This document shows, one piece after another, positions 4,301-41,292 of a stretch of 43,375 nucleotides of DNA. The position numbers and the translations under genes are program-made. The DNA comes from Deltaproteobacteria bacterium (GTDB lineage: Bacteria; Desulfobacterota; DSM-4660; Desulfatiglandales; Desulfatiglandaceae): contig JAGGXA010000028.1 of NCBI GenBank assembly GCA_021163285.1, forward strand, positions 1 to 43,375, given 5' to 3'. Below the pieces are notes generated by a model. It was not told the DNA's origin, ran no database searches, and worked only from the letters and a program-made list of their open reading frames with translations. Every line of letters starts with the position of its first letter. Positions within the stretch are counted from its first letter, which is position 1.

Positions 4301-6463
4301 TCACCCTTCCAGTATCTTCGGAGCCTTAAAGTAATTTCCCTCTCTCGCAGGGGCGTTTGACAGGATAGCCTCGGCTACTGATTCCTTTTCCGGCTCATCA
4401 TCACGCCAGACATTTTTTGATTCCAGGGCGTGGCTTGTGGGACTGACCTGTTCCGTGTCTAACTCTTTAACGATTTCCACATAGTTAATGATTGAAGTAA
4501 GACCTTGTGCGTATTCATTTATCTCGCTGTTATCAACTCTTAATCGTGCCAGTTTTGCCACATGCCTGACGTCATCTTTTGTTATTTTTATTGCCGTTCG
4601 GGTATCCGAAACCCCTTCTTTTTGCCGGGTAAGTATCTCATCATCCACGGAAGAAAAACCTGTGGGCGTGGTAATCCCAAGCTCTTCAAGCTGAGGTTCT
4701 TCGACTGATGAAGGTGCCCTGGTTAACGGGCAAACAGCGCTGCGGTTTTTTGGAAAGACAATGACTTCCCGGATCGATGAAACTTTCAGGATCATCGAAA
4801 TGACCCTGTCGATACCAAGGGCAAGCCCCCCGTGAGGAGGTGTGCCGTATTCCAGCGCATTCAGAAAAAAACCGAACCTGGCATTCGCAGCCTTACTGCT
4901 TAATCCGAGGGCTTGAAACACCTTTTTCTGAATGTTCATATCATGTATGCGGATACTCCCTCCACCCAGCTCTTCGCCATTTATTACCAGGTCGTAGGCC
5001 CTTGAGTTGAGTTTTAACAGATCCTCAACATTATCGGGGTCAAATTCCGTCCTGTCCGGCATGGTAAAGGGGTGATGCTGAGAACTTATTCTCCCGTCTT
5101 TTAACTCAAACAGGGGAAAGTCCGTGACCCAGAGTGAAGAATATTTATTTTCTGGGATAAGTCCGAACCTTTCAGCAACATGAAGGCGGAGCAGTCCAAG
5201 GACTTTATTAACAAGGTCAGGAGAAAAATCCGCTATCATCATGATAACATCCCCCTCTTTTGCATCAAAAAGCTCAATTATCCTTGACAATTCAGCGCTG
5301 TTAAAAAACTGGACAATATTGGACTGGAGTTTTCCATCAATTACCTTCATCCAGGTCATGCCCTTTGCTCCTAACGATGGGACGATCCTCATTGCATATT
5401 CATTCTGGAGTACATTTTTGCTCAGTGCATCCGCCATTTTTTTAACACAAAATCCCTTGACCTTTCCTCCTTTTCCGATGATGTTTCGAAAAATTGAGTA
5501 GCCTGTATCCGTCAAAATATCAGTCGCATCTTTAAAGGCCATCCCGAATCGAAGATCCGGGCAGTCTGTACCGTAGAGATCCATTGCGTCTCCATAGGTC
5601 ATCCTTTTGAATGGCCTTGACAGGTTGATTTCTCCAATGGCAAACAGCCTGACAATCAATTCTTCAATGAGTTCGCATATAAATTCCTCATCAATAAAAG
5701 ATGCTTCCATATCCAATTGTGTGAATTCCGGCTGACGGTTCGGCCTTAAGTCTTCGTCACGAAAACACTTCACTATCTGAAAATATCTGTCAATTCCACC
5801 GATCATGAGAAGCTGTTTAAAAAGCTGCGGGGACTGGGGTAATGCGTAGAATTTTCCATGATGAAGGCGGCTCGGGACGAGAAAATCCCTGGCGCCCTCC
5901 GGAGTGCTTTTTGTGAGAAAAGGGGTTTCAATTTCGATAAAATCTTTGGCGTAAAAATAATCCCTGATCTCTTTGATTATGCGGAATCTCTTTATAAACA
6001 GGTCCTGGATTGAAGGGCGCCTGATATCAAGATAACGGTAGGCCAGCCTGAGATCTTCATCAACATGTTCAGGGTTCAGGTTTATATCTTCTCCAAAAAC
6101 TATAGCTTTTTCCGAGATTTTGAACGGCAGATTCCTTGAGCTTGAAAAAATATCTATCTTTTTTGCAAGTATCTCGATATTACCTGTGCTCAAGTTTTGA
6201 TTTTCAGCGCCTTTTTCCCTGAATGCAACTATCCCTCTTACCGCTACAACAAATTCTTCTCTGAGTGACAGTGCCTTTTCAAAACTCTCTTTATTTGTAA
6301 CAGGGTTAAAAACTATCTGAATAATACCGCTCTTATCCCTGAGATGAATAAATAAAAGATTGCCATGGTTTCTTATTGCGTCAACCCAGCCCATGAGAAG
6401 GACGTTGCTACCTTGAGCGGCAGAGGTCAAAGATCCGGCATAAACTCTCTCTCTCCAGTTCAT
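4301..6463 (-). CDS. aspS: Aspartyl-tRNA synthetase fused to a C-terminal GatC module
   Basis: 720 aa. Residues 1 to about 600 are a bacterial-type class II AspRS (OB-fold N-terminus, FYALPQSPQLFKQLLM, FRDEDLRPNRQPEFTQLD, GGGSIRIH, GLALGIDR). A linker of about 25 aa follows. The last 96 aa (IKITKDDVRHVAKLARLRV...EGNYFKAPKILEG) read as a full-length GatC. Confidence 0.9.
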   Translation of the reverse strand: MNWRERVYAGSLTSAAQGSNVLLMGWVDAIRNHGNLLFIHLRDKSGIIQIVFNPVTNKESFEKALSLREEFVVAVRGIVAFREKGAENQNLSTGNIEILAKKIDIFSSSRNLPFKISEKAIVFGEDINLNPEHVDEDLRLAYRYLDIRRPSIQDLFIKRFRIIKEIRDYFYAKDFIEIETPFLTKSTPEGARDFLVPSRLHHGKFYALPQSPQLFKQLLMIGGIDRYFQIVKCFRDEDLRPNRQPEFTQLDMEASFIDEEFICELIEELIVRLFAIGEINLSRPFKRMTYGDAMDLYGTDCPDLRFGMAFKDATDILTDTGYSIFRNIIGKGGKVKGFCVKKMADALSKNVLQNEYAMRIVPSLGAKGMTWMKVIDGKLQSNIVQFFNSAELSRIIELFDAKEGDVIMMIADFSPDLVNKVLGLLRLHVAERFGLIPENKYSSLWVTDFPLFELKDGRISSQHHPFTMPDRTEFDPDNVEDLLKLNSRAYDLVINGEELGGGSIRIHDMNIQKKVFQALGLSSKAANARFGFFLNALEYGTPPHGGLALGIDRVISMILKVSSIREVIVFPKNRSAVCPLTRAPSSVEEPQLEELGITTPTGFSSVDDEILTRQKEGVSDTRTAIKITKDDVRHVAKLARLRVDNSEINEYAQGLTSIINYVEIVKELDTEQVSPTSHALESKNVWRDDEPEKESVAEAILSNAPAREGNYFKAPKILEG

Positions 6464-8491: not shown

Positions 8492-8716
8492 CTAATTGAT
8501 CCATTCATAAATTTCAATATCATTTTTATCGCCGCATTTTGAACATGTCATGCTGCATCCCCCCTGACATGTAATTTTTTCTATCTTCTTTTTTCTAATC
8601 CATTGATCCAGCATGCCTCGTATAGCTTCAGGTTCTGTGTCAAAATGGATGCAAATGTTATCAAGAGTTACTTTTTTCTGTTGAATAAGGTACTTTTTAA
8701 CATCTGAAAGTATCAT
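8492..8716 (-). CDS. feoC: FeoC-like winged-helix protein
   Basis: 74 aa. Helix-turn-helix-like N-terminus, a Cys cluster (CQGGCSMTCSKCG) and a terminal W, the same pattern as FeoC. It lies downstream of feoAB on the same strand. Confidence 0.6.
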   Translation of the reverse strand: MILSDVKKYLIQQKKVTLDNICIHFDTEPEAIRGMLDQWIRKKKIEKITCQGGCSMTCSKCGDKNDIEIYEWIN

Positions 8717-8721
8717 AAAGT

Positions 8722-8980
8722 GTAACCTTTCACGGGTTTGAAAGTTGAAGGTTCAGGGTTCAACCGTTCATGGTCAAGAACAAAAAAGGCATTGAAGACC
8801 AAAGTCTTTGTTATTAATGCTTATTTCCCAAGCAATTACCAATTTGGCTCCAAATTCCGTATCAGGCAACCACAAGGGATTGCCCCCACGAAAAATCCAA
8901 TGCACGGTGAAAATAATCGTAGAGGCAGGGCTTGTGCCTGCCCGCAGGAAAATGGAACCTCAAAACCCGTGAGCGGTTAC
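8722..8980. mobile_element. MITE-like element, family 3 (termini GTAACCTTTCACGGGTTT / AAACCCGTGAGCGGTTAC)
   Basis: The terminal inverted repeats are visible by eye. The internal 160 bp (8821-8980) is repeated at 34245-34404 with only scattered mismatches. It contains the hairpins GGCAA-CCACAAGGGA-TTGCC and GGCAGG-GCTTGTG-CCTGCC. It has no coding capacity. Confidence 0.65.
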
Positions 8981-11652: not shown

Positions 11653-11886
11653 CTTTTTCCTCCGCGTATAATCACAATAATGATGTTATGGTATCCAATA
11701 TTTATCTGAGTAACTTCCAATATTAGGTATAATTAATCAGGTTATAGCATTATTATGTAATTAGATATGCGAAACAAATATATTAGTCAAGAAAAAAATC
11801 CGGATTTCAAAATAAAAGCCCGTCTTTAAAAAGGTCTAAACAGTGATTTTTAAATGAATCAGATCTTTTCAAAAATCAATATCTAT

Positions 11887-12387
11887 TGTAAAATTGTATA
11901 CCAGGTTGACAGACCTGATACGATCTACAAGCGGCCGGCGGATATATTTGTGGCAACATTTATAGTCTCTCCGGCAATGAACATTTTTAAAGGAGAATTG
12001 TTCAGGGAAAACAAACGACTAATATTTCATAACGAAGAGATTTCCTTTGATGTCGGGCACATACCCTCTTTTCCTGAAAATTCCGAAGTGCATGCAGATA
12101 TTCGCCCTGAGGATATCAATATTGGCCGGGATTCAGATAATATCATTTATGCCGAGGTCGAAATGGTCAGTGATTTGGGGGCGCACAAGTATATCCATTG
12201 CCGGCTCGGTAAAACCGGTATTACGGTCAGAGCTTCAAAAGACGCCAATTTTCCCCCTGGCGAAGTTATGCCGCTTATAATCGATCCCTTAAGACTTCAT
12301 CTTTTTTACAAAGAGCAGGATTTAGATGGAAGGCAAACGTTCATCAGCGCCCATCTGCACACGCTCAGAGCAAGCGGCATGGTTTAA
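11887..12387 (+). pseudogene. 5'-truncated MalK/UgpC-type ABC ATPase remnant (only the C-terminal regulatory/TOBE-like part remains)
   Basis: The translation IYKRPADIFVATFIVSPAMNIF matches the segment that ends the ATPase domain of MalK-type proteins. A beta-rich regulatory domain follows. Walker A, the Q-loop, the signature motif and Walker B are all absent upstream, where the sequence is the AT-rich feoA promoter region. There is no SD before the ATG at 11854. Confidence 0.6.
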
Positions 12388-12391
12388 CTCT

Positions 12392-12579
12392 GAGGAACGA
12401 GGACAAATTAACTTCCCCAACTATGCATCACAGCTTCAGGCCATCCTTGCCCGATCTGAAAATACAAAAATCTTGAAATAGTCCACTATTCCTGCAACTT
12501 TTGTGCTTTTAGATCGAACAAACCTGATCTGAATCCGTGCGCCTTGCCCGGGGATGTTATTTTGTCCTCGTCCCTAAGG
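12392..12579. mobile_element. MITE-like element, family 2, long variant (copy A)
   Basis: Terminal inverted repeats GAGGAACGAGGACAAATTAACTTCCCC (12392-12418) and GGGGATGTTATTTTGTCCTCGTCCCTAAGG (12550-12579). The interior carries a nested palindrome at 12452-12516. Shorter copies lie at 17077-17150 and 36871-36949. Confidence 0.75.
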
Positions 12580-15500
12580 AATTACGAATTTTCAGAAATC
12601 TCTTCAGCCTGGTCTCAAGATCCGCCTCCCAGCCGCCTTGATATACGATTAAAGAAGAGATCTCACTTGCCAGAATCGCACACTTAATTTTTTCCGGCAG
12701 CTTTTTTACACGACCCCTGTACTTCCTGCTTTTCATTATAAGGGGCGGAAGGTGATTTAAGAGAGTATCAAGGAAGACAGGCTGATCTAATAATTCTTGC
12801 CGCTCCTTAAAAAAATTAAACAGATTTGCGTAATGTTCATTAATTTCCATGCTGATGGATCTGCTTATTTCCGTATAAAGCCGAGCTCCCCCATTCTCCC
12901 TATATCGCCTGAAGATCAGATTCGCTTCATCTTCGACCCTCTTTTCAAGGATATTGAGCACATCTTGAACATAAGCCTCTTTTTGATCAAGGAATTCCTT
13001 TTCCGTCATAAGCAGGTTGGCGATAATCTCATATGAAGAGGAAATCACACCGCATTTGTTGGCTGATGCGTCCCTGAGGATTACCACCCCTTTTTTCTGG
13101 AGTTTTTCACGGGCAAAAGGGGTGATAAATGAATTGGCGCCTTCCGAAATAACTCTCGCAGTCGGAGTTCCATCCCCGCTCAACAAGTTTTGCCAGTTAT
13201 TTTTATCTATGGTCTCAGGTCTGCCTCCGCAGGGAAGGAAAAGATCCGCTGAAACCGAAAATATAAGGTCGTCAAATTCCCTGTAAAACTCATCTTCCGT
13301 TATCCATTCTTCTTTCAGTTCAGTGCTTGTCCGGCTGATCTTTCTGTAAAGTTCCCGCAGGCCGTCACGCCTTCGTTCCTTTCTGAAAAGTATGAATCCT
13401 CCCGGATGAAGGGCCTCGGGATCGAAATCAACTACATCATGTTTCAGGATCAGTTCCGATAGAGCGTTCCTGTCAGTTCCTTCAGGGTCATACAGCGCCC
13501 CCGTTCCTGCCACAATACTCAGGATTTTTGCGCGAGGAGAACGCTCCAGCAACAGACGCAGGCAATTCCCGGCTACGTCCCCGTTGGTTCCGCCCGTGAT
13601 CTTTACGGTAAATGAGTCCTGATCCGTTTGAATACCGAGTTCTTTCATGGCGATCTCCGCAAACTTGATCACTCCCCTTGAGGTAACTCCATACTCCTTG
13701 TGATTGATGCCTGCCCGTTTGCTCGACATGATACCGATGCCCAGGATATACCCTCGTTTTACAGACTGCTTTGCAATATACTCGATCATATCGTCATGCA
13801 TGTTTTCGTCCGGCCCCAGTTCAATTGCCTCATCATCACCGTAATAATCCACAACATTACGGTTTTTTGCGGTACCGTTTTTTGTTACGAAGATATCGAG
13901 AAAGGAATTGTTGATGCCGAACTGGACCTTGTTCAGCCTCTGCCGAACCGAGGCAGGCGAATCGCAGCCTCCAGCGTCAACAACAACGGTCAGTTTGGAA
14001 CCGCCTTCATAAATATCCTTGTTTTTGAGGTGCTGAGTATGCGCGAGGACAAAGACTTCCCGAAAGAGTGTATTTATGTTTGTGGTATATTCATCATGAG
14101 TGGTGCAGATAACAGTGCGCCATCCGCCTCTTGCTATATCCGAAAATCCTATATGGTAACCGACACTGTAACGGCTGAAGAAAAAAGTAACCCGGAAAGG
14201 AGTTCCCGGCGGAAGATCGGAGGTAAATTCTTCGCCTATTTCCTCAAGATAGCAAGGGTCCAGACGAAAGGCGAGTGCATGCTTTTCAGGTACAAAAAAA
14301 TTGGTTTTCAGTGTATGGCGAATCATTAAAAGAGAAGTGCGAAAAATTGTTTTACGAATTTCATCGAGGTATTTATGGCCTGTATTATAACCTTGAATGG
14401 CCTTGAGAATATTCTTTTCAGATTCGTTATATGCGTTATCCCGATCTTTAATATCCGGGTCAAATTTTTGTCTGAAAGTATTGATTAGTCTTAAGGTCAT
14501 ATCCGGATCGGAATAAAAAGCGCTCTTGATCATGTCCAGGGCAAACCTGTCAGGCTCGTTGTGTGCAAGGCCGGTGTGGCAAAAGGCTATAAACGCATTG
14601 CTCAGGGATGCCTCTTCCCCGGTCATAATACGATTTGCCACAAAATTGACATAAGTGGTTCTCGAAGTAGACAGGATCTGTGTGTTGTATAATTCCTTCT
14701 TGAGTTTGAGGAATAAGTCCGAACCCGTATCCAATACATCCGTTCCGTGGGGCAAGACGTAAAATATCCCTAAAAAGTATGGGTGGACTCCTGTGCTGAT
14801 ATTGAGGTTGTAAGAACTCCTGACCCCAATATTCAGCCGCTGGAAAACTTCGCTTACCTGGGTCATAAATCCTTTCTGAGGAGGATTGCCCACGGAGAAG
14901 AAAAGGCGTATTGATTCACTGTGACGCGATAAACTCACAGGCCTTTCCACATCGACAAATAGCCCATCATGTTTTATCCCCTGCTGAAAGACCCACATAA
15001 GCCTTGCAATCCAGTCGAGAGGTGAAATACGCACGTATTTTTCATTATTATGCCAGATAAGACCGAGTATCCTGTCAAATTCCCTGAAGTCGAAAGATGG
15101 GTACAGGGTCTTCATAAAAGACGTGATCCTGGTTTTTATCCTTCCGGGTATTACAGCCTTTTTTGCTCCGGCAATCTCTTCATGGCTTTTTCGCTCAAAC
15201 TCATACTTCTGAATTTCAAGATCCCTGTCTGAGCCGGGTATTGGTGAATACGAGTGAATCAGCTCTGCATAGGAAATATCCTGCTCTTTTAATTCATTAA
15301 GGGTTTCATAGAGGGAGCCGGGAATATCCTGGCGCGCTACAATGTACTTTTTTTCCTGATCCGCAAGTATGACCTTATGTTGATTGGGCACGTCATGAAG
15401 ATACATTGCCAGGCTGGTGATTGCAGAGGGTTCCTCTTTCATGGTAATAAAAAAAGATGGGTGCAGATTGGCATATAACCAGTCCAGATTTTTCCCGGCC

Positions 15501-15712
15501 TTGCGGCATTGAACGTCAAAAGATTCCATGATCTGCCTGTAAAAACCGTCATGCTCTGTTTCCTGTTTATGACGAGCCTCTTTTTCCGTGTCTTTGGGAT
15601 GAATTTTAGTGGTGTTAACCATTTTTTGATCTCTCCTGTGATAAAATCTGATCAGCGCCCGAACGGTAAGCTGAAATTGCTGTATTTCCGGTAGTTTAAG
15701 AATGTTTTCCAA
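12557..15712 (-). CDS. Large NAD-specific glutamate dehydrogenase-like protein (GDH2 / Bac_GDH superfamily)
   Basis: 1051 aa. The central and C-terminal region shows the pattern I recall from large GDHs: ELGPDENM, GINHKEYGVTSRGV, ITGGTNGDVAGN (dinucleotide loop), LYDPEG and EGANSFITP. The last 6-7 codons and the stop lie inside the family 2 repeat. Confidence 0.6.
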   Translation of the reverse strand: MENILKLPEIQQFQLTVRALIRFYHRRDQKMVNTTKIHPKDTEKEARHKQETEHDGFYRQIMESFDVQCRKAGKNLDWLYANLHPSFFITMKEEPSAITSLAMYLHDVPNQHKVILADQEKKYIVARQDIPGSLYETLNELKEQDISYAELIHSYSPIPGSDRDLEIQKYEFERKSHEEIAGAKKAVIPGRIKTRITSFMKTLYPSFDFREFDRILGLIWHNNEKYVRISPLDWIARLMWVFQQGIKHDGLFVDVERPVSLSRHSESIRLFFSVGNPPQKGFMTQVSEVFQRLNIGVRSSYNLNISTGVHPYFLGIFYVLPHGTDVLDTGSDLFLKLKKELYNTQILSTSRTTYVNFVANRIMTGEEASLSNAFIAFCHTGLAHNEPDRFALDMIKSAFYSDPDMTLRLINTFRQKFDPDIKDRDNAYNESEKNILKAIQGYNTGHKYLDEIRKTIFRTSLLMIRHTLKTNFFVPEKHALAFRLDPCYLEEIGEEFTSDLPPGTPFRVTFFFSRYSVGYHIGFSDIARGGWRTVICTTHDEYTTNINTLFREVFVLAHTQHLKNKDIYEGGSKLTVVVDAGGCDSPASVRQRLNKVQFGINNSFLDIFVTKNGTAKNRNVVDYYGDDEAIELGPDENMHDDMIEYIAKQSVKRGYILGIGIMSSKRAGINHKEYGVTSRGVIKFAEIAMKELGIQTDQDSFTVKITGGTNGDVAGNCLRLLLERSPRAKILSIVAGTGALYDPEGTDRNALSELILKHDVVDFDPEALHPGGFILFRKERRRDGLRELYRKISRTSTELKEEWITEDEFYREFDDLIFSVSADLFLPCGGRPETIDKNNWQNLLSGDGTPTARVISEGANSFITPFAREKLQKKGVVILRDASANKCGVISSSYEIIANLLMTEKEFLDQKEAYVQDVLNILEKRVEDEANLIFRRYRENGGARLYTEISRSISMEINEHYANLFNFFKERQELLDQPVFLDTLLNHLPPLIMKSRKYRGRVKKLPEKIKCAILASEISSLIVYQGGWEADLETRLKRFLKIRNSLGTRTK

Positions 15713-15730
15713 ATCGAAGTTTTTGAGCCA

Positions 15731-15789
15731 TTAGGGAACTGGAAGGAAATAATCTGCGCGATATGCGTAGATTATTTCCTGTAAGGGAC
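15731..15789. repeat. Palindromic repeat family 5, short hairpin variant
   Basis: TTAGGGAACTGGAAGGAAATAATCTGCGC-GAT-ATGCGTAGATTATTTCCTGTAAGGGAC. The arms match those at 993-1154. It lies 19 nt upstream of the GDH start. Confidence 0.7.
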
Positions 15790-15848
15790 TTTACTGAAAA
15801 TATTCTACCCTCTGTAAATAAAATTCATCTGTCAACATTTCGACCTGT

Positions 15849-15872
15849 AGAGACGATGCATGCATCGTCTCT
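15849..15872. repeat. Perfect 24-bp palindrome AGAGACGATGCA|TGCATCGTCTCT
   Basis: Exact reverse-complement symmetry checked by hand. It lies in the 564-bp GDH/livF divergent intergenic region. Confidence 0.8.
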
Positions 15873-16276
15873 GTCCCGGTGGCAATAAACCCGATGGAAC
15901 GTTCAAAAATGGCAAAGGCGTAAGGGATTCCCTTACAAAAAAAGAGATGAAATCCTATGAGAGCAAAATTTAACGTTCAAAGTCACTGCCTAAATGGGAT
16001 GTTCTCAATATTGACTCTGACCGAATTTTTCATTATATACCAAATTCAAGGCTTGACAACAACTTCATTTCCCGTAAATTTGTACCCTTGGTGAATGGCT
16101 GCCTGTTTTCTGATTTCAACGTTACGTGAACCGTGGCCGGGGAATTGGTTCGAGATGAGATAGCCAAAGGCTTGTTGTGCCTGTCCAATAAATCATTGTG
16201 TAATGGTCGAACGACTTGAATAATAAGGCTTTATACCTTAATCTGTTTAATTTATAATTTCCGGGGTCTGTTTGTA

Positions 16277-17080
16277 ATGAAAAATGACGCCGGATTATTG
16301 CTCAACAATATCAGTGTGGTCTGTTCTGATGTCATGCAGGTGCTTAAAGGTGTGTCACTTTTCATCAAAAAAGGTGATATTGTCTCTCTCCCGGGCAGTA
16401 ATGGCGCAGGTAAAACCACGACATTTAAGGCAATATCAGGCCTGCTCAAGCCTGAAAACGGCAGGGTTGCCGAGGGAAGCATTGAATATGACGGGAGGCC
16501 TGTCCAAAATTCAGCCGCTGAAGAGATTCCCCGCATGGGGATTATTCAGGCACTGGAAGGCAGGCAGGAGTTCAAATATCCTGCTATCGAAGAAAATTTA
16601 AGGGCAGGAACAGCTACCCGATGGGGCAAACCATACCGCAAAGACCTTGACATGGTTTACGATTATTTCCCGGCCCTGCTCAGACGAAAAAAAGCGCTTG
16701 CCGGTTATTGCAGCGGCGGGGAACTTCAGATGCTCGCAATAGGGAGGGTACTTATGGCTCATCCCGCGCTTTTGATGCCGGATGAGCTCCCTCTCGGTCT
16801 TGCTCCGTTTCTGGTAAAAGAGATATTTCAGATATTAAAAAGAATAAACCATGAGCATGGAACCACACTCATGATCGTTGAGCAAAACGCCAATATATCC
16901 CTCCAGATTGCCCATTATGGGTATGTGATGGAAAACGGCAAAATTGTTATGGAGAGTGATGCGGAAGGACTGTTTGCAAACCCGGATGTAAAGGAGTTTT
17001 ATCTCGGGACTTCTGCTTCAGGGGCGCTCAAATCCTGTAAAAACATAAAATCTTATAAACGCCGCAAACGCTGGTATTAG
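16277..17080 (+). CDS. LivF-type branched-chain amino acid ABC transporter ATP-binding protein (orphan)
   Basis: 267 aa. Walker A GSNGAGKTT, signature-like CSGGELQML, Walker B region LLMPDELPLGLAP, and VEQN. The basic tail KSYKRRKRWY is typical of one LivF subfamily as I recall it. No permease, LivG or binding-protein gene is adjacent. Confidence 0.8.
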   Translation: MKNDAGLLLNNISVVCSDVMQVLKGVSLFIKKGDIVSLPGSNGAGKTTTFKAISGLLKPENGRVAEGSIEYDGRPVQNSAAEEIPRMGIIQALEGRQEFKYPAIEENLRAGTATRWGKPYRKDLDMVYDYFPALLRRKKALAGYCSGGELQMLAIGRVLMAHPALLMPDELPLGLAPFLVKEIFQILKRINHEHGTTLMIVEQNANISLQIAHYGYVMENGKIVMESDAEGLFANPDVKEFYLGTSASGALKSCKNIKSYKRRKRWY

Positions 17081-17172: not shown

Positions 17173-20100
17173 ATGGACTCAGCAGATATATTCCGGCATG
17201 AAGATTCCTTTCATTTTATCAAACCTGATGATTTTGATTCTCTTGGAATTGATCCAGCGGATATCCCTGTTGGGACATTTCCTTCTCTAAAGCATCCATC
17301 CATGCTTCCAAGCAGGTTCGGCGGAAATGCCTATGGATTAGGCATGTTCGAACTCTATGACCGTTTAGGGCCTAACGACACTTCACTCCTCCAGTCCATC
17401 TCCTTTGATAATCCTGATGATCTAAGAAAAAACCATGGAACGCTCAATGAAATATTCAAAAAAATGAGCTTATTAATCAGGGTGTCAACCCTTGGAAAAC
17501 CTTATTATCTGATCCCCGCCCACCTGGTATCCAACTCCATCACCCATATTAAATCCAAAGTCGACGAAATCACGAAAATCATAACTTTTCACCGAAAAAA
17601 ATATTACAAAGAGTATAGCAATATCGGCCTGGTGATGCAGCAGGATGATCTGATCCTCCATGAAATATCGTTCCGGTTCAGAGAACACCGGTTTGTGGTA
17701 ATAGATTCTATTGAAAAATCCCGGACCATAACGCAGAGCCTGGACATGGTTATCCTGACAAAGGACATTTTTGAAATAATTCTCATGGAAAAGATCAGTA
17801 CCATTTCTCAGGAGATGGTAACGAAGAAGCGCCTGTATCAGTATTCAGTTTATCTCCTCTGGAAGATCTTCCGGATGTTAAAGCCTGATGGTGAGGTTTT
17901 TGTCATTTCTAACTGCTATACTCCTAAAACGAATCAAATCACCAAAGTTACCTTCAAGACGATTCAGGAAGAAAAAAATTTTCTTTTATTCACCCATATT
18001 TTCAAGACCAGAAAGAGGTACAAATTAAAAGACCGTTCTGCCAAAATCAATGTTTTCGACTTCCAGAAATATTTGAGCGGGGTTTATGTTGAACAGGAGG
18101 TTATTGATGAACTCCTCGGGGGGAAAGATTTGGATGATATGACCCTCAAACAGTTAAACAACCTGCCCTATATCAATTTTCAACTTACCGACTGGTCGCT
18201 CCTGAGTGATCAGGAAAGAACCTGGTCAAATCTTTTTTCCATTTATCTCGACAAGATATTCTTGAAACCCCTCGTGCCCAGGGCAGTAAAAGAGGACTGG
18301 AGGAAGAGGTTCTCATGTGCTGATTATACCCCTGAATACATGAAGATATACCTCGGACAGAAAAAACCTCTGAAGATCACTCTGGCCAAGATAATGAATG
18401 ACGTAGATAAATCAGGACTGGCCGGTTGCCCTATTGCCCTTTTGGCTGATTACAGGGATTCTTTTGAGTATGTGATAAAGACACTACGGGTAATAGAAGG
18501 GCTGAAAAAAGGGGCTTATCATGACTTGCCTCAACTTTATCTTGATCGCCTTAGACAGCCCCTGGAAAACAAGAGTAAAAGGTTCTCCTCACTCGAAGAT
18601 GTTATCAAACTCACAGGCAAGATCCGCAGGCTGGAAAAAATAAGTTCATATCTTAACCCGGATAATATTGAAAGTCCGCTTACAAAGGTCATTAAGAATT
18701 TGGAGTTCCTGACATTTTTTGGATTCAGCCATAATGAGTTAAAGGAAATTGTCTATATTATCATGGGCCACTCAACTCTTGAACGCATTATCTCCGGAAA
18801 AATAAATGAAATGGCGTTAAAACCTCTTTCAGACCTGGCCCGGAATTACAGTCCGGAGAAGGCAATTAATCTCCTCCGTTATTGCCTCCTGATGACCACG
18901 GCCGAAACCGAAGCATCGAGGTCTGCCGAACTGACCCCGGGACAGCTTGCCGAACTCTTTGATCTCTACGCATTAATCATCAGGGTCATAACCAATAGAG
19001 AACTCGATTGGGACAGTATCCTGGACGAAAAGATATCCGCCATGGGGGGGATACACAATAAGATAATTCGAAAGATTCTCATGATGATGAATTACCATGA
19101 ATTCCTTGATACCTGGCCTGATCTGGAGCAAAAGGGCGAGATGGAAAAAGAAGCATTAGCCGACTATAATGAGCAGCAACTGTTTAGAATAGAAAATGTC
19201 ATAAAACTTGTTAAAACTATTGACCGGTTTGAAGAGATATATCTAAAGTCAGACCCTCTGCAAATTTCTGTTTTTTACAGGAAGCTCCTTAAAATAGAAT
19301 TTCACGGGACAGGGCGCTTATTTGAAAGGATGGACAGCCGGCATGTTGTTATTCTTCTCTGGATGGCGGTAAACCTGGCGCAAGGCGGCGCAATTAATTT
19401 TAATCCCATTCTCTCCGATATAGAGGCAGGCCAGATTGATGAGTATATGAAAAAAATCGAACATGAGGCGCTGGCAATCAATACGGATTACCTTTATCTC
19501 GATTTTCTCAGGCAGTTCCAGGGGCAGCTCTACAGGCACGGAAAGTCATTTATCATTGGAACGGGCTTCCAGTTCAGAACTTCCTCTTTTAATCAGGCGC
19601 TGGAACTTACCTATATGGATATGGACAAGAATATTGATCTGTTAGATGTCTTGTCAAAAAAACTGGCAGGTTGCTTTATTTCCGAGATCAATACTGAAGA
19701 CCTTAAAAAAGTGGAATCCCTTTTTTCTAATCTGGAAAGCTTTTATCAGGGCCATCTCAGGCTTCTTAGGCATACGGATTCCCGTATAAAATTACCGGCA
19801 AGACAGAAACTGTGGTTTATAAAAATTAAGGATTTAAGAGAATTTTTAAGGTCAAATTTGCTGAACGTAATTTTCCGGCCTGAAGACGTGTATACTGATC
19901 TTGACCTGCTATTCCGACACACTCCGGCCATTCTGAATTTCATACTCCCTGAATTTACAGCTCTTCGGAATATCGACCTTTCCTTTCATCTCTATATGAA
20001 ACTGCCTGTTACCCATTACATCATGGCATCCGTCAGGAAGCTGCAGGCATTGATCAGGCGCAATAAGGAGAATTTTCAAGATGCACAATACCTGCATAGA

Positions 20101-21873
20101 CTGGCTCAGAAAGAATTCGGACCTATGGCAACGGGCATTGTCGGTGTAAGTGAATCACAGATAAATGAGCTGGAAAATATCGTTGAATCCTTGCGCGGGG
20201 ATCGCTCCTTGTTTGACGCACTTATCAAGGCCTTTATCTTCCAGGATATTGGAAGGGTCCCATCGTTCAGGGAAAAATATAAGGACGATATTAACCCTGC
20301 CGACTTTGCCCAGGCCGGCGCGATTTTTCTTGAAAAGGAAAAGATCGCAGAGAATTATCAGCTTGATAAAAGGGGGAAGACCTGTTTGAGCTTTTTTGTC
20401 ATGCACCATAGTCTCCTTCACCACATCGTCCGTGGTGAAATATCATTTTTTGCCATAAAGGATATCCTCGATCCGAGGGATAAAAAACTCTTTGATGCTT
20501 TCTTTCTCTTTTCCCTGATAATGCTCTCCGCTATCAGGGAGGATCTGATCCTTGAAGACCTGGCGGACAGGCTTTTCAGGATAAGAAAAATGTGCCACAA
20601 GATCATTAACAAAGATGTGGACTTTGAAGAGCAGATGAACAAAGTTTTTATTCTTAGAGGGGAACTCTTTTATGCACTTGAAGAATATGAAAAAAAAGGG
20701 CTTCCGAGAGGGGATGCGGCATTGGATCTGCTGAAGGGTATGGACTGGGAAAAACCGGAAAAATTAAAACTTGTCCGGGCAGGTAAAATGATATTTGCCA
20801 TGGAACGTTTTTTCAGAATGCTCGGCATCAGGTATGTGGAATTTTACGATCTTGTCTGCTACAAATTAAAGGTATCCATGAAAACTATCTATAACAAGAG
20901 GAAATTTGCCGGCATCGGATACTCCACCTTTGAAAGAGAACTCTTTGAGACCTATAGCACTTATATGACTTTTCAAGTCCTGCCGGAAACCATAAGACAC
21001 TTTATTCTCGATTATCTCCTGAATGATAAAATACGTTTTTTCTGGTATGAAAAGGTCAGCATGTATCTAAGCAATGAAAATCGAATAAAACTCCTCTTGT
21101 TAGGGATAATGGGGGCGGAAAAGATCAGGTCAACTAACGCTCCGGTTTGTATCGCTTTTTTTAGAATAAGCGAACAGATCGAGAAACGACATGAGGTCGT
21201 TAACGATTATTTGAGCAGTCTGTCCTTTGAGAAGATCCGAGGGAGTAAATCTCATCTGAATCACTTTTTCAAGGCCTCTGCAGGGATCTTGTTCAAGCAG
21301 ACAGGTTTTCCGAATTTCCTTTCAATCGACTTCCGGTATCATATTGATATCTCCAGACAAATAAAACATATGGGACGTATTGATAATGTTGAACAACTAA
21401 AAAGATATTACTATCAGAAGCTGCGTTCATTAAGAAAAGAGATTTTTCAAACGGATGATTATGAAGTTCAGCTTGAAAGGGCATTTGAAAAGAGGCTTGT
21501 TGAAATTACGGACATGATATTAAACCGGACAAAAAAGGAGATGGACCTTATAAGTGATTTTGAAAACCTCCATAAATTAGTCGAAGACCTTCTCGAAAGA
21601 TCATGGGACATAGGGCTTTCCGATGATCAAAGGCACAGGTTAAACGACCTTTATGAATTAAGGAAGGACAGGTTAAAGAGGGAGAAACTCACCGAAATTA
21701 ATGATAACCTGAAAACATTTCATAATGTAAATGGATTAAAAAAATACTGGGATTCCATTAAATGGGATTTACAAAAAAACCGCAGATTTTTTGGAAAAGA
21801 ATTTGAAACCCTTATTGCAAGAAAATTTGATAAGGTTAAAAAGGAAATAGAAGATGTTGTTCTGTATGGGTAG
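17173..21873 (+). CDS. Giant hypothetical protein (1,566 aa) with degenerate GlnD-like HD/helical modules
   Basis: A single uninterrupted ORF with AGGA 5 nt upstream of the ATG. There is no signal peptide, TM segment or P-loop. Two regions (nt ~18700-18990 and ~20200-20590) resemble the HD-plus-downstream-helical part of PII uridylyltransferase. The second has QD in place of HD. The C-terminal ~170 aa is coiled-coil-like. Confidence 0.7.
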   Translation: MDSADIFRHEDSFHFIKPDDFDSLGIDPADIPVGTFPSLKHPSMLPSRFGGNAYGLGMFELYDRLGPNDTSLLQSISFDNPDDLRKNHGTLNEIFKKMSLLIRVSTLGKPYYLIPAHLVSNSITHIKSKVDEITKIITFHRKKYYKEYSNIGLVMQQDDLILHEISFRFREHRFVVIDSIEKSRTITQSLDMVILTKDIFEIILMEKISTISQEMVTKKRLYQYSVYLLWKIFRMLKPDGEVFVISNCYTPKTNQITKVTFKTIQEEKNFLLFTHIFKTRKRYKLKDRSAKINVFDFQKYLSGVYVEQEVIDELLGGKDLDDMTLKQLNNLPYINFQLTDWSLLSDQERTWSNLFSIYLDKIFLKPLVPRAVKEDWRKRFSCADYTPEYMKIYLGQKKPLKITLAKIMNDVDKSGLAGCPIALLADYRDSFEYVIKTLRVIEGLKKGAYHDLPQLYLDRLRQPLENKSKRFSSLEDVIKLTGKIRRLEKISSYLNPDNIESPLTKVIKNLEFLTFFGFSHNELKEIVYIIMGHSTLERIISGKINEMALKPLSDLARNYSPEKAINLLRYCLLMTTAETEASRSAELTPGQLAELFDLYALIIRVITNRELDWDSILDEKISAMGGIHNKIIRKILMMMNYHEFLDTWPDLEQKGEMEKEALADYNEQQLFRIENVIKLVKTIDRFEEIYLKSDPLQISVFYRKLLKIEFHGTGRLFERMDSRHVVILLWMAVNLAQGGAINFNPILSDIEAGQIDEYMKKIEHEALAINTDYLYLDFLRQFQGQLYRHGKSFIIGTGFQFRTSSFNQALELTYMDMDKNIDLLDVLSKKLAGCFISEINTEDLKKVESLFSNLESFYQGHLRLLRHTDSRIKLPARQKLWFIKIKDLREFLRSNLLNVIFRPEDVYTDLDLLFRHTPAILNFILPEFTALRNIDLSFHLYMKLPVTHYIMASVRKLQALIRRNKENFQDAQYLHRLAQKEFGPMATGIVGVSESQINELENIVESLRGDRSLFDALIKAFIFQDIGRVPSFREKYKDDINPADFAQAGAIFLEKEKIAENYQLDKRGKTCLSFFVMHHSLLHHIVRGEISFFAIKDILDPRDKKLFDAFFLFSLIMLSAIREDLILEDLADRLFRIRKMCHKIINKDVDFEEQMNKVFILRGELFYALEEYEKKGLPRGDAALDLLKGMDWEKPEKLKLVRAGKMIFAMERFFRMLGIRYVEFYDLVCYKLKVSMKTIYNKRKFAGIGYSTFERELFETYSTYMTFQVLPETIRHFILDYLLNDKIRFFWYEKVSMYLSNENRIKLLLLGIMGAEKIRSTNAPVCIAFFRISEQIEKRHEVVNDYLSSLSFEKIRGSKSHLNHFFKASAGILFKQTGFPNFLSIDFRYHIDISRQIKHMGRIDNVEQLKRYYYQKLRSLRKEIFQTDDYEVQLERAFEKRLVEITDMILNRTKKEMDLISDFENLHKLVEDLLERSWDIGLSDDQRHRLNDLYELRKDRLKREKLTEINDNLKTFHNVNGLKKYWDSIKWDLQKNRRFFGKEFETLIARKFDKVKKEIEDVVLYG

Positions 21874-24408: not shown

Positions 24409-24585
24409 GGGAGGCTGTCCGGAAATGCCCTTTCCCACAAACTCTGCGTTACGCGAAAAAAATTATCCTGGAAGGTAAGCAAGCTTGCGAGACTCCGATA
24501 TCAACTATATGCCTGCGGTAATTTTTTTCACAAGCCTTGATTTTGGAAAAATTTTGGAAAAAATTGCTATTTCCGGACAGCCTCC
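24409..24585. mobile_element. MITE-like element, family 1 (termini GGGAGGCTGTCCGGAAA / TTTCCGGACAGCCTCC)
   Basis: The terminal inverted repeats are near-perfect over about 17 bp. The interior matches 29974-30286, apart from the extra nested segment in that copy. It sits in the divergent S8-protease/priA promoter region. Confidence 0.75.
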
Positions 24586-29973: not shown

Positions 29974-30286
29974 GGGAGGCTGTTCGAGAATGCCCTTTTT
30001 CCCAAACTCTGCGTTATGATCAAAAAATTATCCTCGAAATATTAACTAGTGTCCGTCCATAAATGAGATAGCTTGTTCGAGATCAAGGCGCTCTGAAATT
30101 TTAACCACAGGAATACATTGAGTATTTCGAGGATTAAAATTTCAGCGCAACGCAGATATCGGGCAGGTAAGCGAGCCTGCGAGACTCCGAAATAGCCATT
30201 TATGGATGGGCACTAACTATATGCCTGCGGTAATTTTTTGAGCAAGCCTTGATTTTGAAAAAAATTGCTGTTTTCGGACAGCCTCC
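29974..30286. mobile_element. MITE-like element, family 1, with nested palindromic insertion
   Basis: Same termini as 24409-24585. The interior carries extra inverted repeats: TAGTGTCCGTCCATAAATGAGATAGC (30047-30072) against ATAGCCATTTATGGATGGGCACTA (30192-30215), CCTCGAAATAT against GTATTTCGAGG, and GCGCTCTGAAATTTTA against TAAAATTTCAGCGC. Confidence 0.75.
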
Positions 30287-30380: not shown

Positions 30381-32114
30381 ATGAGACCCTATTTTGAACA
30401 AATGTCCTCTTTCGGAAAGGCATTAACAGACAGCCAGAAAGAAAGTACAAAAGAAAATGTTGCAGAGATCAGGAAAGTTGAAGAAGAGGTGGCAAAGGCA
30501 ATTGAAAAGGTGAAAAACGCGGGGATACCTGCCGAGGTAATTAAAAAAAGAGGCCAGTTGACTGTCTGGGAGAGGATTGAGTACCTCGTAGACCCCGGGA
30601 GCTGGTGCCCTCTCCATACCCTTTTTAATCCACAGTTTAATCCCGAAGGGACGAGTGGAGTTATAGACGGACTTGCCAGGATAAACGGAAAATGGGCAGT
30701 GGTGATAGGCTTTGATAACAAGGTGATGGCAGGCGCCTGGATCACGGGGCAGGCTGAAAATCAGCTCAGGGTTACAGACATGGCCAAGAGACTTCATATA
30801 CCTCTCGTATGGCTCGTTAACTGCAGTGGCGTAAAACTGCCGGAACAGCATGAGGTATATGCAAATAGAAGGGGAAACGGAACGACCTTTTACCGTCACG
30901 CAGAGCTTGAAAAGCTGGGAGTGCCTGTTATTGCCGGAATATACGGCACAAACCCGGCAGGAGGCGGTTACCAGGGAATCAGTCCTACAATCCTTATTGC
31001 CCATAAAGATGCCAATATCGCAGTCGGCGGCGGTGGCATTGTAGGCGGGATGAGTCCCAAGGGGCACTTTGATGAGGAAGGAGCCGAACTGCTTATCGAT
31101 GCTACTCGTCATTTCAAGCAGGTCCCTCCGGGCAGTATCTCAATCCATTATAATGAAACGGGATTTTTTAAGGAGGTATATGATACCGAGAAAGAAGTGC
31201 TTGATGCCTTGAAAAAATATGTAGATATGGTTCCGGCCTATGACCCGAACTTTTTCCGCGTTGCAGAACCGAAAGAACCGCGGTTTCCGGCTGAAGATAT
31301 CAACAATATAGTGACATTTAACCAGAAAAGAAGCTACAATTTTGAAGAAATGCTGGCCCGTATCTTTGATAATAGCGAACATATGGAATTCAGGCCGGGT
31401 TATGGCCCGGAGGTATATACGGGTCTTGCCAAAATGGATGGCTTTTTAGTCGGCTTTATCGGTAATCACCAGGGATTTTTGGGACAGAATTATCCTGAAT
31501 ATGCGTCATACCCCGGAATAGGAGGCAAACTCTACAGACAGGGCCTAATCAAGATGAATGAATTTGTCACGCTTTGCGGACGTGACAGAGTCCCGATTGT
31601 CTGGTTTCAGGATACCACGGGAATTGACGTGGGAGATATTGCGGAAAAGGCCGAATTGCTCGGTCTCGGGCAATCTCTGATATATTCAATTGAACAGACT
31701 GACGTACCCCAAATCTGCATTGTACTCAGAAAGGGGACTGCGGCCGCCCATTATATTATGGGTGGGCCTACTGCCAATAATAATAATGCCTTTACCCTTG
31801 GAACACCAACGACTGAGATATACGTTATGCATGGTGAGACGGCAGCGGCCGCCTCATTTTCAAGGAGACTGGTCAAAGAAAAAGATGCCGGGCGTCCCTT
31901 ACAGCCCGTCATTGACAAAATGAATGAGCTCGCACAGCAATATCATGATAACTCAAGGCCGGTATTTTGTGCGAATAAGGGTTTTGTTGATGAAATTATA
32001 TCTTTTCCGGATTTGAGAAAATATATCATGGCATTTGCAGGCTGCGCATATCAAAACCCGACATCAATTTGTCCGCATCATCATATGATGCTTCCAAGAA
32101 TCATCAAGGGATAA
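30381..32114 (+). CDS. gcdA: Glutaconyl-CoA decarboxylase alpha subunit-type carboxyltransferase
   Basis: 577 aa from ATG 30381, with GGAGG 5 nt upstream. Two-domain carboxyltransferase containing YGTNPAGGGYQGISPT, IGGKLYRQGLIKMNEFVTLC and TGIDVG. The N-terminus, overall length and the C-terminal ICPHHHMMLPR match my recollection of Acidaminococcus GcdA. Confidence 0.75.
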   Translation: MRPYFEQMSSFGKALTDSQKESTKENVAEIRKVEEEVAKAIEKVKNAGIPAEVIKKRGQLTVWERIEYLVDPGSWCPLHTLFNPQFNPEGTSGVIDGLARINGKWAVVIGFDNKVMAGAWITGQAENQLRVTDMAKRLHIPLVWLVNCSGVKLPEQHEVYANRRGNGTTFYRHAELEKLGVPVIAGIYGTNPAGGGYQGISPTILIAHKDANIAVGGGGIVGGMSPKGHFDEEGAELLIDATRHFKQVPPGSISIHYNETGFFKEVYDTEKEVLDALKKYVDMVPAYDPNFFRVAEPKEPRFPAEDINNIVTFNQKRSYNFEEMLARIFDNSEHMEFRPGYGPEVYTGLAKMDGFLVGFIGNHQGFLGQNYPEYASYPGIGGKLYRQGLIKMNEFVTLCGRDRVPIVWFQDTTGIDVGDIAEKAELLGLGQSLIYSIEQTDVPQICIVLRKGTAAAHYIMGGPTANNNNAFTLGTPTTEIYVMHGETAAAASFSRRLVKEKDAGRPLQPVIDKMNELAQQYHDNSRPVFCANKGFVDEIISFPDLRKYIMAFAGCAYQNPTSICPHHHMMLPRIIKG

Positions 32115-32239
32115 AAAAAAGTAACCGTTCACGGGTTTGAAGGTAGAAGGCAGAAGTTTAATAGCTCAATATTCAGGGCAATAACTTATGGATTCCCGGG
32201 CATCCTTCAATAAGTTCAAAAAATAGTTTCGAGTTTGAA

Positions 32240-33996: not shown

Positions 33997-34244
33997 AGTG
34001 TACCTCTACGGAATTTAGTAATTGTTCACTGAAAGGTCTATGCATACCAGCCTCCCGGGGTTTTGATATACCCATAACCAATCATTCCTTAAAGGGTGTG
34101 ACATATTTATTGGGCCTTGATTATCGTTTCGGCCATTTGCAGTCCGGGGTTGAAACCCCAAGCTATTATTTGCCGTTCCTGCGAGACTGTATAAGCCCTA
34201 TCGGGGCGATAGACAATAGCCCGTCAATTTATTGCCGGATGGCC

Positions 34245-34404
34245 TTATTTCCCAAGTATTTGCCCGTTTGGCTCCAAATACCGTATCGGGCAACCACAAG
34301 GGATTGCCCCTGCGAAAAACCCAATGCACGGTGAAAACAATCGTAGGGGCAGGCTATGTGCCTGCCCTTAGGAAAATGAAACCTCGACATGTGAATGGCT
34401 GTTA
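34245..34404. repeat. Partial family 3 element (160-bp copy of 8821-8980)
   Basis: It aligns by eye along its whole length, including CAACCACAAGGGATTGCCCC and GGCAGG..TGTGCCTGCCC, with scattered substitutions. The left terminus is absent. Confidence 0.7.
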
Positions 34405-41255: not shown

Positions 41256-41292
41256 AACCGTTCACGGGTTCAATGGTTCAGGGTTCAAGGTC
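41255..41292. repeat. Family 3 terminal motif plus GGTTCA-rich tail (ATAACCGTTCACGGGTTCAATGGTTCAGGGTTCAAGGTC)
   Basis: It carries the same AACCGTTCACGGGTT motif as 8441-8472, 8722- and 32121-. It fills the 61-nt spacer between the carboxyltransferase stop and the radical SAM start. Confidence 0.55.

Follow-up and report, generated by a model that had tools for sequence, protein, structure and literature searches.

A large unannotated protein family with a tandem-duplicated, asymmetrically degenerate enzyme-like module, encoded mostly beside carboxylate import and CoA-ligase genes in Desulfobacterales-type bacteria

The 43,375-nt contig JAGGXA010000028.1 of a Deltaproteobacteria bacterium (Desulfatiglandaceae; assembly GCA_021163285.1), which as a whole we call the window, has as its longest open reading frame (ORF) a gene at 17173..21873 on the plus strand that encodes a protein of 1,566 aa. 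An initial annotation, made from the letters alone, had already picked it out as the largest ORF of the window. The protein belongs to a family that is unannotated in any library searched; judged from sequence and predicted structure, its component folds are known ones, and its architecture and set of conserved residues look new. Among its relatives the gene most often stands last in clusters for carboxylate import and AMP-forming coenzyme A (CoA) ligases, which makes a nucleotide- or acyl-ligand-binding accessory or regulator the most likely role of the product. We therefore tentatively propose, with a probability of roughly 0.4, that the protein is a multidomain ligand-binding, and possibly catalytic, accessory or regulator of organic-acid uptake and CoA activation, in which the first copy of a duplicated module supplies the site and the second copy its partner.

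From the N- to the C-terminus the protein consists of a Gly-rich signature motif, a class I methyltransferase (MTase) fold that lacks the S-adenosylmethionine (SAM) loop, a duplicated module of ~450-500 aa, and long C-terminal helices. Each copy of the module comprises, in order, a helical HD-like domain, an alpha/beta unit and a helical spacer. The structure was modelled with AlphaFold2 (AF2) in two pieces, aa 1-900 and aa 681-1566, each with an alignment of 59 full-length homologues; predicted local distance difference test (pLDDT) values were 85.7 and 86.9 and predicted TM-scores (pTM) 0.80 and 0.76, respectively. The gene and the parts of its product are as follows, with nucleotidyltransferase abbreviated as NTase.

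17173..21873, plus strand: gene for the 1,566-aa protein, complete with stop codon (ORF list, translation, full-length homologues of 1,561-1,591 aa)
17245..17352, plus strand: N-terminal signature motif, aa 25-60, GIDPxDIPxGTFxxxKHP...SRFGGNAYGxGxFE (conservation 0.85 in block 31-60)
17470..18372, plus strand: predicted class I SAM-MTase-fold (Rossmann-like) domain, aa ~100-400, limits approximate (Foldseek top 50, residue frequencies)
18490..19962, plus strand: repeat copy 1, aa 440-930 (hhalign against copy 2, segment scan)
18535..19047, plus strand: helical HD-like domain 1, aa ~455-625, module 1 of the initial annotation, with the motif G532-H533-[ST]...R538...G542-K543...A577-E578
19285..19677, plus strand: alpha/beta unit A, aa ~705-835, candidate degenerate NTase-like core (AF2 secondary structure, Foldseek of the whole C-terminal piece)
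20125..21642, plus strand: repeat copy 2, aa 985-1490, the module of copy 1 minus most of its conserved polar residues (hhalign)
20170..20670, plus strand: helical HD-like domain 2, aa ~1000-1166, module 2 of the initial annotation, with Q1024-D1025 at the HD position, H1079, G1088 and D1129
21025..21348, plus strand: alpha/beta unit B, aa ~1285-1392, degenerate duplicate of unit A (hhalign; AF2 strands 1287-1290, 1325-1328, 1371-1376 and 1382-1388)
21370..21870, plus strand: C-terminal long-helix region, aa ~1400-1566 (AF2 helices 1428-1459, 1484-1513, 1519-1535 and 1537-1565; pLDDT 84-95)

This is a cytoplasmic multidomain protein. It has no Walker A motif and no convincing transmembrane segment (Kyte-Doolittle maximum 1.75), the two most hydrophobic 19-residue windows (1.75 and 1.63) falling in helices of confidently modelled globular domains, and its acidic N-terminus argues against a signal peptide. 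The absence of a P-loop, signal peptide and membrane segment had been noted in the initial annotation, as had the long helical C-terminus, which the models reproduce: the C-terminal ~170 aa form long helices in which 42% of the residues are charged (K, R, E or D) against 29% overall. The region is probably a charged coiled coil or bundle and overlaps in part with the helical spacer of copy 2. All peptides quoted in that annotation are present within 3 nt of the positions it gave, among them the QD at nt 20242-20247 and the stretch FHGTGRLFERMDSRHVVILLW, which we place at nt 19300-19362 rather than 19302-19365.

The tandem modules proposed at the outset are real. A global hhalign comparison of aa 440-930 with aa 985-1490 gives a probability of 99.5% and an E-value of 9.5e-22 over 433 columns, and the two halves are thus homologous. 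The relationship is carried by colinear pairs of segments at a constant offset of ~546-586 aa: residues 488-628 match 1034-1166 (probability 97%, E = 5e-11), residues 685-817 match 1262-1390 (probability 96%, E = 3e-9), and further pairs reach 917 against 1477. These comparisons used a diverse alignment (A6) of 27 sequences at 21-47% identity with an effective number of sequences (Neff) of 5.1; a first self-comparison with the close-homologue alignment (Neff 2.5) showed no repeat, and the duplication is significant only with the diverse one. A third repeat in the N-terminal region (229-304 against 779-861) was considered and is unsupported, at a probability of 3%.

The two copies have fared very differently. 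All of the polar residues that stay invariant or nearly so at 21-47% identity lie in copy 1, namely G532-H533, R538, G542-K543, E578, H711-G712-T713, W730, N742, N744, G798 and D816, and the copy 2 positions aligned to them are mostly variable. In HD-like domain 1, G532, G542, K543 and E578 are found in 27/27 diverse sequences, H533 in 26/27 and R538 in 25/27. The key residues of unit A are F-H711-G712-T713-G, W730, I-[N/D]742-F-N744-P, T797-G798 and Y-x-D816, set in a predicted framework of strands 709-711, 740-742, 791-793, 799-803 and 810-814 and helices 713-719 and 722-735; H711, G712, W730 and N744 are kept in 27/27, D816 in 22/27, and position 742 is Asn in 23 sequences and Asp in four. 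Mapped onto copy 2, H533 becomes H1079, R538 becomes H1084 and G542-K543 becomes G1088-E1089, while H711-G712-T713 corresponds to F1290-G/W1291-Y1292 and N742-x-N744 to (N/S)1328-F-x. The metal-binding dyad of a true HD domain is missing from both. Its place is taken in copy 1 by E475-D476, which is N-D in most close relatives and variable in the broad set, and in copy 2 by Q1024-D1025, with Q1024 in 14/27 sequences and D1025 in 11/27; Q1024, D1025 and H1079 are all unconserved across the broad family. The replacement of catalytic dyads suspected from the sequence alone is therefore confirmed for the HD position and, with [N/D]-x-N, for the DxD position, although the NTase DxD strand itself had been placed elsewhere, in a stretch containing MDSRH, and the DxD equivalence of [N/D]-x-N is a candidate one. 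In the model the region concerned is helix 722-735, the conserved strand being I-N742-F-N744-P instead, and the MDSRH stretch is not conserved in a short subfamily described below.

Ahead of the duplicated module lie two parts of different character. The Gly-rich motif of aa 25-60 is the most conserved stretch of the family, with G34, P42, G50, G51, G55, G57 and E60 near-invariant even in the 21-47%-identity set. It is modelled with low confidence (pLDDT 58-67, below 50 for residues 56-60) and is probably flexible. The MTase-fold domain is a feature that the initial annotation had missed. In a Foldseek search of the PDB with the N-terminal model, the top 50 matches were all class I SAM-MTases (BpumL, BioC, GSMT and others), the best being BpumL 4kwc with a probability of 1.0, an E-value of 4e-3 and a target TM-score of 0.41, so that residues ~100-400 are predicted to adopt a Rossmann-like fold of this class. 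The family shares with these enzymes the fold and the 'LKPxG' turn after beta4, here 'LKPDG' with an invariant G240, but not the SAM loop: the GxGxG of motif I (E/DxGxGxG) is absent, beta1 and its loop reading IGLxTHxDD, with T-H-x-D-D in place of the glycines. This replacement, which leaves only the 'LKPDG' turn canonical, accounts for the weak fold scores. D178, the acidic residue that follows beta2 and binds ribose, is found in 54/60 close members and in only 12/27 diverse ones, and no Pfam MTase domain is matched by the query, the 27 diverse members or the excised domains; together with the lost motif I, this makes SAM binding doubtful.

The initial annotation took the protein for an orphan, but it has at least 430 homologues at E<=1e-3 in a search of 5.8 billion clustered proteins, and relatives turned up in 204 species-level genomes when a single genome was scanned for each species. 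Apart from one 'partial' entry of 1,390 aa, the best 120 homologues are 1,526-1,591 aa long and 52-64% identical over their full length; all are unnamed or 'hypothetical', and none has a precomputed Pfam domain. The best 80 of the 204 genomes are all metagenome-assembled and are labelled mostly as Desulfobacteraceae, Desulfobacterales, Desulfatiglandales, Deltaproteobacteria or Thermodesulfobacteriota, and the few labels of other phyla, on short contigs, are probably binning errors. A profile of aa 420-1400 run against 1.84 billion representatives returned 115 proteins, all of them members or fragments of the family or members of its shorter subfamily; every match was unannotated, and none was an intermediate sequence with annotated domains. 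Because this search recovered only the family's own sequences, we regard the family as closed and restricted to a lineage, apparently that of Desulfobacterales/Desulfatiglandales-type bacteria (Thermodesulfobacteriota). The gene is also being maintained: relative to a sister strain (98% identical) it carries 29 synonymous and 15 non-synonymous differences, and the resulting ratio of non-synonymous to synonymous rates (dN/dS) of 0.13 indicates purifying selection; the value for the nearby glutamate dehydrogenase (GDH) gene is 0.19.

Searches of annotated collections were uniformly negative. Pfam and NCBIfam gave no meaningful match on the whole protein (Pfam E<=0.1), and Pfam gave no recurrent match on the 27 diverse members (E<=5) or on ten excised segments (E<=10). 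HD, NTP_transf_2, PolyA_pol, GlnD_UR_UTase, GlnE, DUF294 and ACT were all absent from the Pfam scans of the query, the 27 members and the excised domains. Nothing relevant was found in PDB sequence searches (phmmer, and hmmsearch with two profiles) or in a literature search for pseudo-NTase/HD/MTase architectures. Against the anti-phage defence and phage models of PADLOC and PHROGs there was no match at E<=0.1 other than a stray PycC (E = 0.058) in one divergent member. The family also includes a subfamily of 1,120-1,250 aa (labels P0177, P0180, P0181, P0184 and P0213) in which the N-terminal motif and the MTase-like domain are followed by copy 1 and by the helical domain of copy 2, and the C-terminal third, with unit B and the C-terminal helices, is missing; unit B is absent from P0180, P0181 and P0184. 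In the one context examined (L095 9001-12369) the subfamily gene is solitary.

The genomic setting of the family provides a clue to its function. Among 68 homologous loci with informative upstream sequence, the following classes were distinguished.

Class 1, 37/68 loci: operon of a Liv-type ATP-binding cassette (ABC) transporter and a ligase directly upstream
Class 2, 15/68 loci: AMP-binding ligase of ~510 aa directly upstream, 7 of them with the DctM of a tripartite ATP-independent periplasmic (TRAP) transporter visible within 6 kb upstream
Class 3, 5/68 loci: Liv permease, Liv substrate-binding protein or DctM directly upstream
Class 4, 11/68 loci: divergent electron transfer flavoprotein (ETF) genes, a divergent YsiA-type TetR gene, or other genes

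In at least 57 of the 68 loci (84%) the gene thus comes last, 3' of genes for carboxylate import and activation. The Liv-type operon has a fixed order, with ETF and TetR genes divergent from it, then a Liv-type substrate-binding protein, a LivG-like ATPase, an AMP-binding CoA ligase of ~650 aa, two permeases and, last, a LivF-like ATPase whose orthologues, 76-80% identical, sit 16-223 nt upstream of the big gene on the same strand. The class 2 loci come mostly from a more divergent clade, and TRAP transporters are importers non-homologous to the Liv-type ABC system. Finding one arrangement repeated with transporters of two unrelated types argues for a functional link more strongly than plain synteny would. 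The subtilase and PriA genes were not found to be conserved neighbours among the homologous loci. Downstream, a convergent pair encoding a CCG-domain protein and a Fer4_8 protein (HdrD/LutA-B-like) is a second recurrent neighbour, lying within 600 nt in 12/58 informative loci and within ~2 kb in more (for example L004 12719-14173, L007 13865-15215 and L008 13717-15237).

What the duplicated module is related to was approached by fold and profile comparison. The sole strong group of PDB matches to the C-terminal model consists of six chains of 3wfo, 3wfp, 3wfq and 3wfr (Foldseek probability 0.99-1.0, E = 1.8e-3 to 4.9e-2, target TM-score 0.35-0.39, 414-433 columns), of which 3WFR is a class II CC-adding tRNA nucleotidyltransferase (PMC4810234); the CC-adding enzyme of 3wfp and 3wfr comes from Aquifex. 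Since only ~280 residues follow the start of unit B, an alignment of ~430 columns that begins with the alpha/beta unit fits only unit A, the spacer and helical domain 2, and these are the parts that the match would cover. Phosphodiesterases of the HD fold matched only at E 1-3 and a probability of 0.1, and a viral fold library gave the unnamed viral protein H1ZV28 (probability 0.99, TM-score 0.44) and otherwise mostly coiled-coil or tape-measure noise. In the profile comparison, hhalign of the diverse alignment against the HD domain of E. coli Cca (248-310) gave E = 0.0034 and a probability of 9.4%, with the FQDIGR of module 2 on CHDLGK and H1079 on Cca H305. When the family profile was compared with 133 E. 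coli control proteins for calibration, Cca ranked 1/133 with a score of 33.9 against 25.2 for the next; PcnB ranked 11/133 and GlnE 18/133, and the HD proteins Dgt, SpoT and YfbR gave no signal. The relatives of E. coli Cca found for a reference profile were all at least 85% identical and added nothing. This outlier alignment agrees with the result of the fold search, and we see in it modest, specific support for relating the helical domain to the HD-type body found in class II tRNA nucleotidyltransferases. The HD-like helices of the initial annotation thus survive in the sense that module 2 aligns best to the HD domain of Cca, but not as a recognizable Pfam HD domain.

On the predicted structures, the duplicated region resembles, if weakly, class II tRNA nucleotidyltransferases more than any other solved structure. 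The order of alpha/beta unit, helical neck and HD-type body in those enzymes matches unit A, spacer and HD-like domain 2. E. coli Cca is recognized by PolyA_pol (PF01743), PF12627 and HD (PF01966), whereas the family matches neither PolyA_pol nor HD; it has [N/D]xN in place of DxD, Q-D or E/N-D in place of HD and an extra helix between the Gly turn and the second strand. In addition, its module is present in tandem and joined with an MTase-fold domain and long C-terminal helices in a protein fourfold larger, and its genomic context is not tRNA-related. Calling the alpha/beta units NTase-like is the least secure point of our description. GlnE and GlnD are large regulatory enzymes built of NTase and helical modules, the module of GlnE being tandem-duplicated, and they illustrate the use of a duplicated NTase/HD-type chassis for regulation; unlike them, the family has no ACT domains, no catalytic dyads, no nitrogen-regulation genes among its conserved neighbours and no detectable sequence relationship to either. 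HDOD domains and pseudo-NTases (the DZF domain, MiD51) are HD- or NTase-fold domains that have lost catalytic residues and kept ligand-binding or scaffolding roles, but no sequence or fold match to them was obtained, and they are unrelated in architecture and taxonomic range. Genes for GlnD, GlnE or Cca were found in none of the retrieved Desulfobacterales loci.

According to the reading that we favour, copy 1 would supply the only functional site, one for ligand binding and possibly catalysis, with copy 2 as its degenerate structural partner, the two making up an intramolecular pseudo-dimer as in other tandem-duplicated enzymes. A nucleotide, an acyl-adenylate or a CoA species is a plausible ligand, and the protein may assist or regulate the uptake of organic acids and their activation by the AMP-forming CoA ligases. 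Several observations weigh against this proposal. No sequence-profile method assigns any domain to a known family, and the fold matches are weak (target TM-score ~0.4, E ~1e-3), with the NTase-like register read from predicted secondary structure. The HD-like assignment rests on one outlier alignment of 9.4% probability to which Dgt, SpoT and YfbR add nothing, and hhalign tests of the unit register against the head domains of Cca, PcnB, GlnD and GlnE were non-significant and mutually inconsistent. As for the context, the gene is solitary in the short subfamily and in the most divergent of the full-length members examined, and a minority of main-clade loci also lack the importer/ligase association, which could therefore be inherited synteny. 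A more daring version of the proposal holds that the family is a novel sort of regulatory machinery for anaerobic carboxylate metabolism, in which an ancient class II NTase/HD-type module was duplicated, fused to a disabled MTase fold and rewired, and that a composite pocket (GH[ST]..R...GK...E with HGT...NxN...D) senses or acts on a nucleotide or acyl-adenylate/CoA species and so controls fatty- and aromatic-acid import and CoA activation in sulfate reducers. This would be chemistry, or pseudoenzyme signalling, with no characterised precedent, and we think it unlikely to hold in full.

Alternatively, the protein may be an active enzyme with a non-canonical centre, copy 1 (H533/R538/K543/E578 with H711/[N/D]742/N744/D816) carrying out nucleotidyl or phosphoryl transfer or hydrolysis; by analogy with GlnE and GlnD, one possibility would be the reversible modification of a different kind of target, a neighbouring AMP-forming ligase or a component of the transporter. 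Eight polar residues that are invariant or nearly so across 21-47% identity go beyond what fold maintenance needs, position 742 is Asp in 4/27 sequences, and D816 fits the third carboxylate of an 'h[DE]h' pattern. The likeness to class II NTases and the HD domain, the precedent of GlnE, in which tandem NTase modules divide their labour, and the conserved adjacency to AMP-forming ligases all point the same way. Two-metal NTase chemistry and HD phosphohydrolase chemistry, however, normally need the residues of the DxD motif and the HD dyad. The Pol-beta NTase signature hG[GS]x9-13[DE]h[DE]h plus a third carboxylate is replaced here by H711-G712-T713, a spacing of 30 aa from G712-T713 to N742 instead of the usual 9-13, I-[N/D]742-F-N744 with Asn at 744 in 27/27, and D816. 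The HD-phosphohydrolase signature H...HD...D is likewise incomplete, its dyad His missing from both copies, with the later His (H533, 26/27) and acidic residue (E578, 27/27) kept in copy 1, and no Pfam catalytic domain is matched. On balance we find an enzyme of this kind rather doubtful. The opposite view, of a purely structural or scaffolding protein (cytoskeleton-like or organising a metabolon) whose enzyme-like domains are relics and whose conserved residues serve folding and contacts, would explain why none of the three enzyme-like folds has its canonical cofactor or catalytic motifs. The size, the long C-terminal helices and the duplicated architecture suit it too, as does a flexible and highly conserved N-terminal motif fit for binding a partner. 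Yet the invariant His, Arg, Lys, Glu, Asn and Asp residues cluster in two short motifs of copy 1 only, a pattern more suggestive of a small-molecule site than of a protein interface, and strictly conserved length with conservation along the whole chain would be unusual for a mere spacer. A pure scaffold therefore seems quite improbable to us.

The initial annotation had offered a further explanation, a duplicated and catalytically dead GlnD-type sensor or scaffold working with the large GDH in nitrogen or glutamate signalling. The tandem duplication is genuine, the best GlnD alignment does fall on the GlnD HD region (520-604) in the register proposed for module 1, and a GDH gene does lie 1.46 kb upstream on the opposite strand in the window genome and two sister assemblies. 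The rest of the evidence is against it. GlnD consists of an NTase domain (NTP_transf_2 / GlnD N-terminal), GlnD_UR_UTase (PF08335), HD (PF01966) and two ACT domains, and the corresponding Pfam domains occur in 0/27 members. With E. coli GlnD as a single-sequence template, hhalign gave a score of 23.0, E = 0.14 and a probability of 0.4%, rank 7/133, which is the level of noise. GDH occurs within 9 kb in 0/48 loci upstream and 0/39 downstream among those with enough flank, so that the link to GDH is largely refuted by the context statistics; the conserved neighbours are instead carboxylate importers, CoA ligases, ETF and TetR, and the contexts inspected contained no PII or glnA gene and no nitrogen-regulation gene among the called neighbours. 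We infer that the protein is not a nitrogen or glutamate sensor, and give the GlnD-type explanation very little credence.

In the window itself the setting is an eroded form of the one seen in relatives. Two neighbours need to be introduced.

16277..17080, plus strand: LivF-like ABC ATPase gene (NCBIfam LivF, 1.1e-54, below the curated cutoff)
12557..15712, minus strand: large GDH gene, 1,051 aa from a TTG start (Pfam; called as 1,021 aa in sister assemblies)

These are the divergent GDH ~1.5 kb away and the intervening LivF-like ATPase of the initial annotation, correctly described there, but its 'orphan livF' is in fact a conserved remnant of the Liv-type ABC and CoA-ligase operon that precedes the big gene in most relatives. 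The window has no other transporter genes. Its livF shares 76-78% identity with orthologues that share 88-91% among themselves, and it remains an intact ORF with 37 private substitutions that include the flanks of Walker A and Walker B (L39P before Walker A; LLLLDEPS changed to LLMPDELP). In two sister assemblies ~98% identical to the window (L096 7100-8000, L097 3860-4760) livF is a pseudogene: codon 7 is a stop, and a deletion of 88 nt (window 16705-16792) takes out the signature/Walker B region. By sequence comparison, then, livF appears to be all that is left of a transporter operon in this lineage, and to be decaying. Because the big gene stays intact under purifying selection while livF decays, its function is not strictly dependent on the transporter. 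The gene order FeoB-FeoA-GDH-livF-big gene-subtilase recurs in the two independent sister assemblies, and is therefore no assembly artefact.

The spacer between GDH and livF (15713-16276) holds short inverted repeats and a perfect 24-nt palindrome at 15849-15872, AGAGACGATGCATGCATCGTCTCT, which occurs once in the window and is not expected by chance (matched in 0/100 shuffles); possible explanations are an operator, a terminator, or a scar left by recombination at the site of operon truncation. That the spacer is a transposable element (MITE), as had been supposed, is not confirmed: it occurs only once in the window, and it is not among the interspersed repeat families found there. Those are short intergenic repeats at 8707-8961, 24409-24554, 29974-30266, 32106-32150, 34244-34385 and 41239-41283, comprising a 142-nt pair at 87% identity, a 45-nt family of three copies and a two-part pair of 65 nt and 52 nt at 83-90% identity, and they may be REP- or MITE-like elements. 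In the large GDH, the Pfam matches (Bac_GDH_CD, ELFV_dehydrog) span only aa ~454-935, and the N-terminal ~450 residues have no Pfam match. Next to the GDH gene, a 177-aa ORF at 11854-12387 (plus strand) encodes only the C-terminal regulatory part of an ABC ATPase (MalK OB and TOBE_2), the ATPase domain missing; the region is called as two small genes in a sister assembly and is possibly another gene remnant.

Two further features of the window deserve mention. The 720-aa ORF at 4301-6463 (minus strand) combines a complete aspartyl-tRNA synthetase (AspRS; anticodon-binding OB, tRNA-synt_2 and GAD) with a C-terminal GatC domain (aa 644-713) and lies directly upstream of gatA and gatB (2615-4057 and 1166-2614, both minus strand). 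It looks like an AspRS-GatC fusion, by which a transamidosome would be partly encoded as one polypeptide. At 34810-36752 (plus strand), an ATP-grasp_5 ORF of 225 aa overlaps by 4 nt with the ORF that follows it, which encodes 422 aa and has no Pfam match.

In anoxic sediments, fatty acids, alkanes and aromatics have major degraders in the Desulfobacterales and Desulfatiglandales, and to our knowledge little is established about how they regulate the uptake and CoA activation of fatty and aromatic substrates. A family of ~1,570-aa proteins that is found in more than 200 species, held under purifying selection, unannotated, and placed at the end of two non-homologous types of importer and ligase cluster is therefore a concrete candidate for an accessory or regulator still missing from the picture of carboxylate metabolism. 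The family gives no evidence of being a GlnD-like nitrogen sensor, and the invariant polar site of its copy 1 mismatches the canonical chemistry of NTases or HD enzymes. It also offers a clean example of a tandem-duplicated enzyme-like module that has degenerated asymmetrically, and as such bears on the evolution of pseudoenzymes and of new active sites. Although its function is so far a proposal drawn from sequence, predicted structure and gene context, this widespread 'dark' family, well defined and testable, appears to be tied to carboxylate metabolism in an environmentally important clade.

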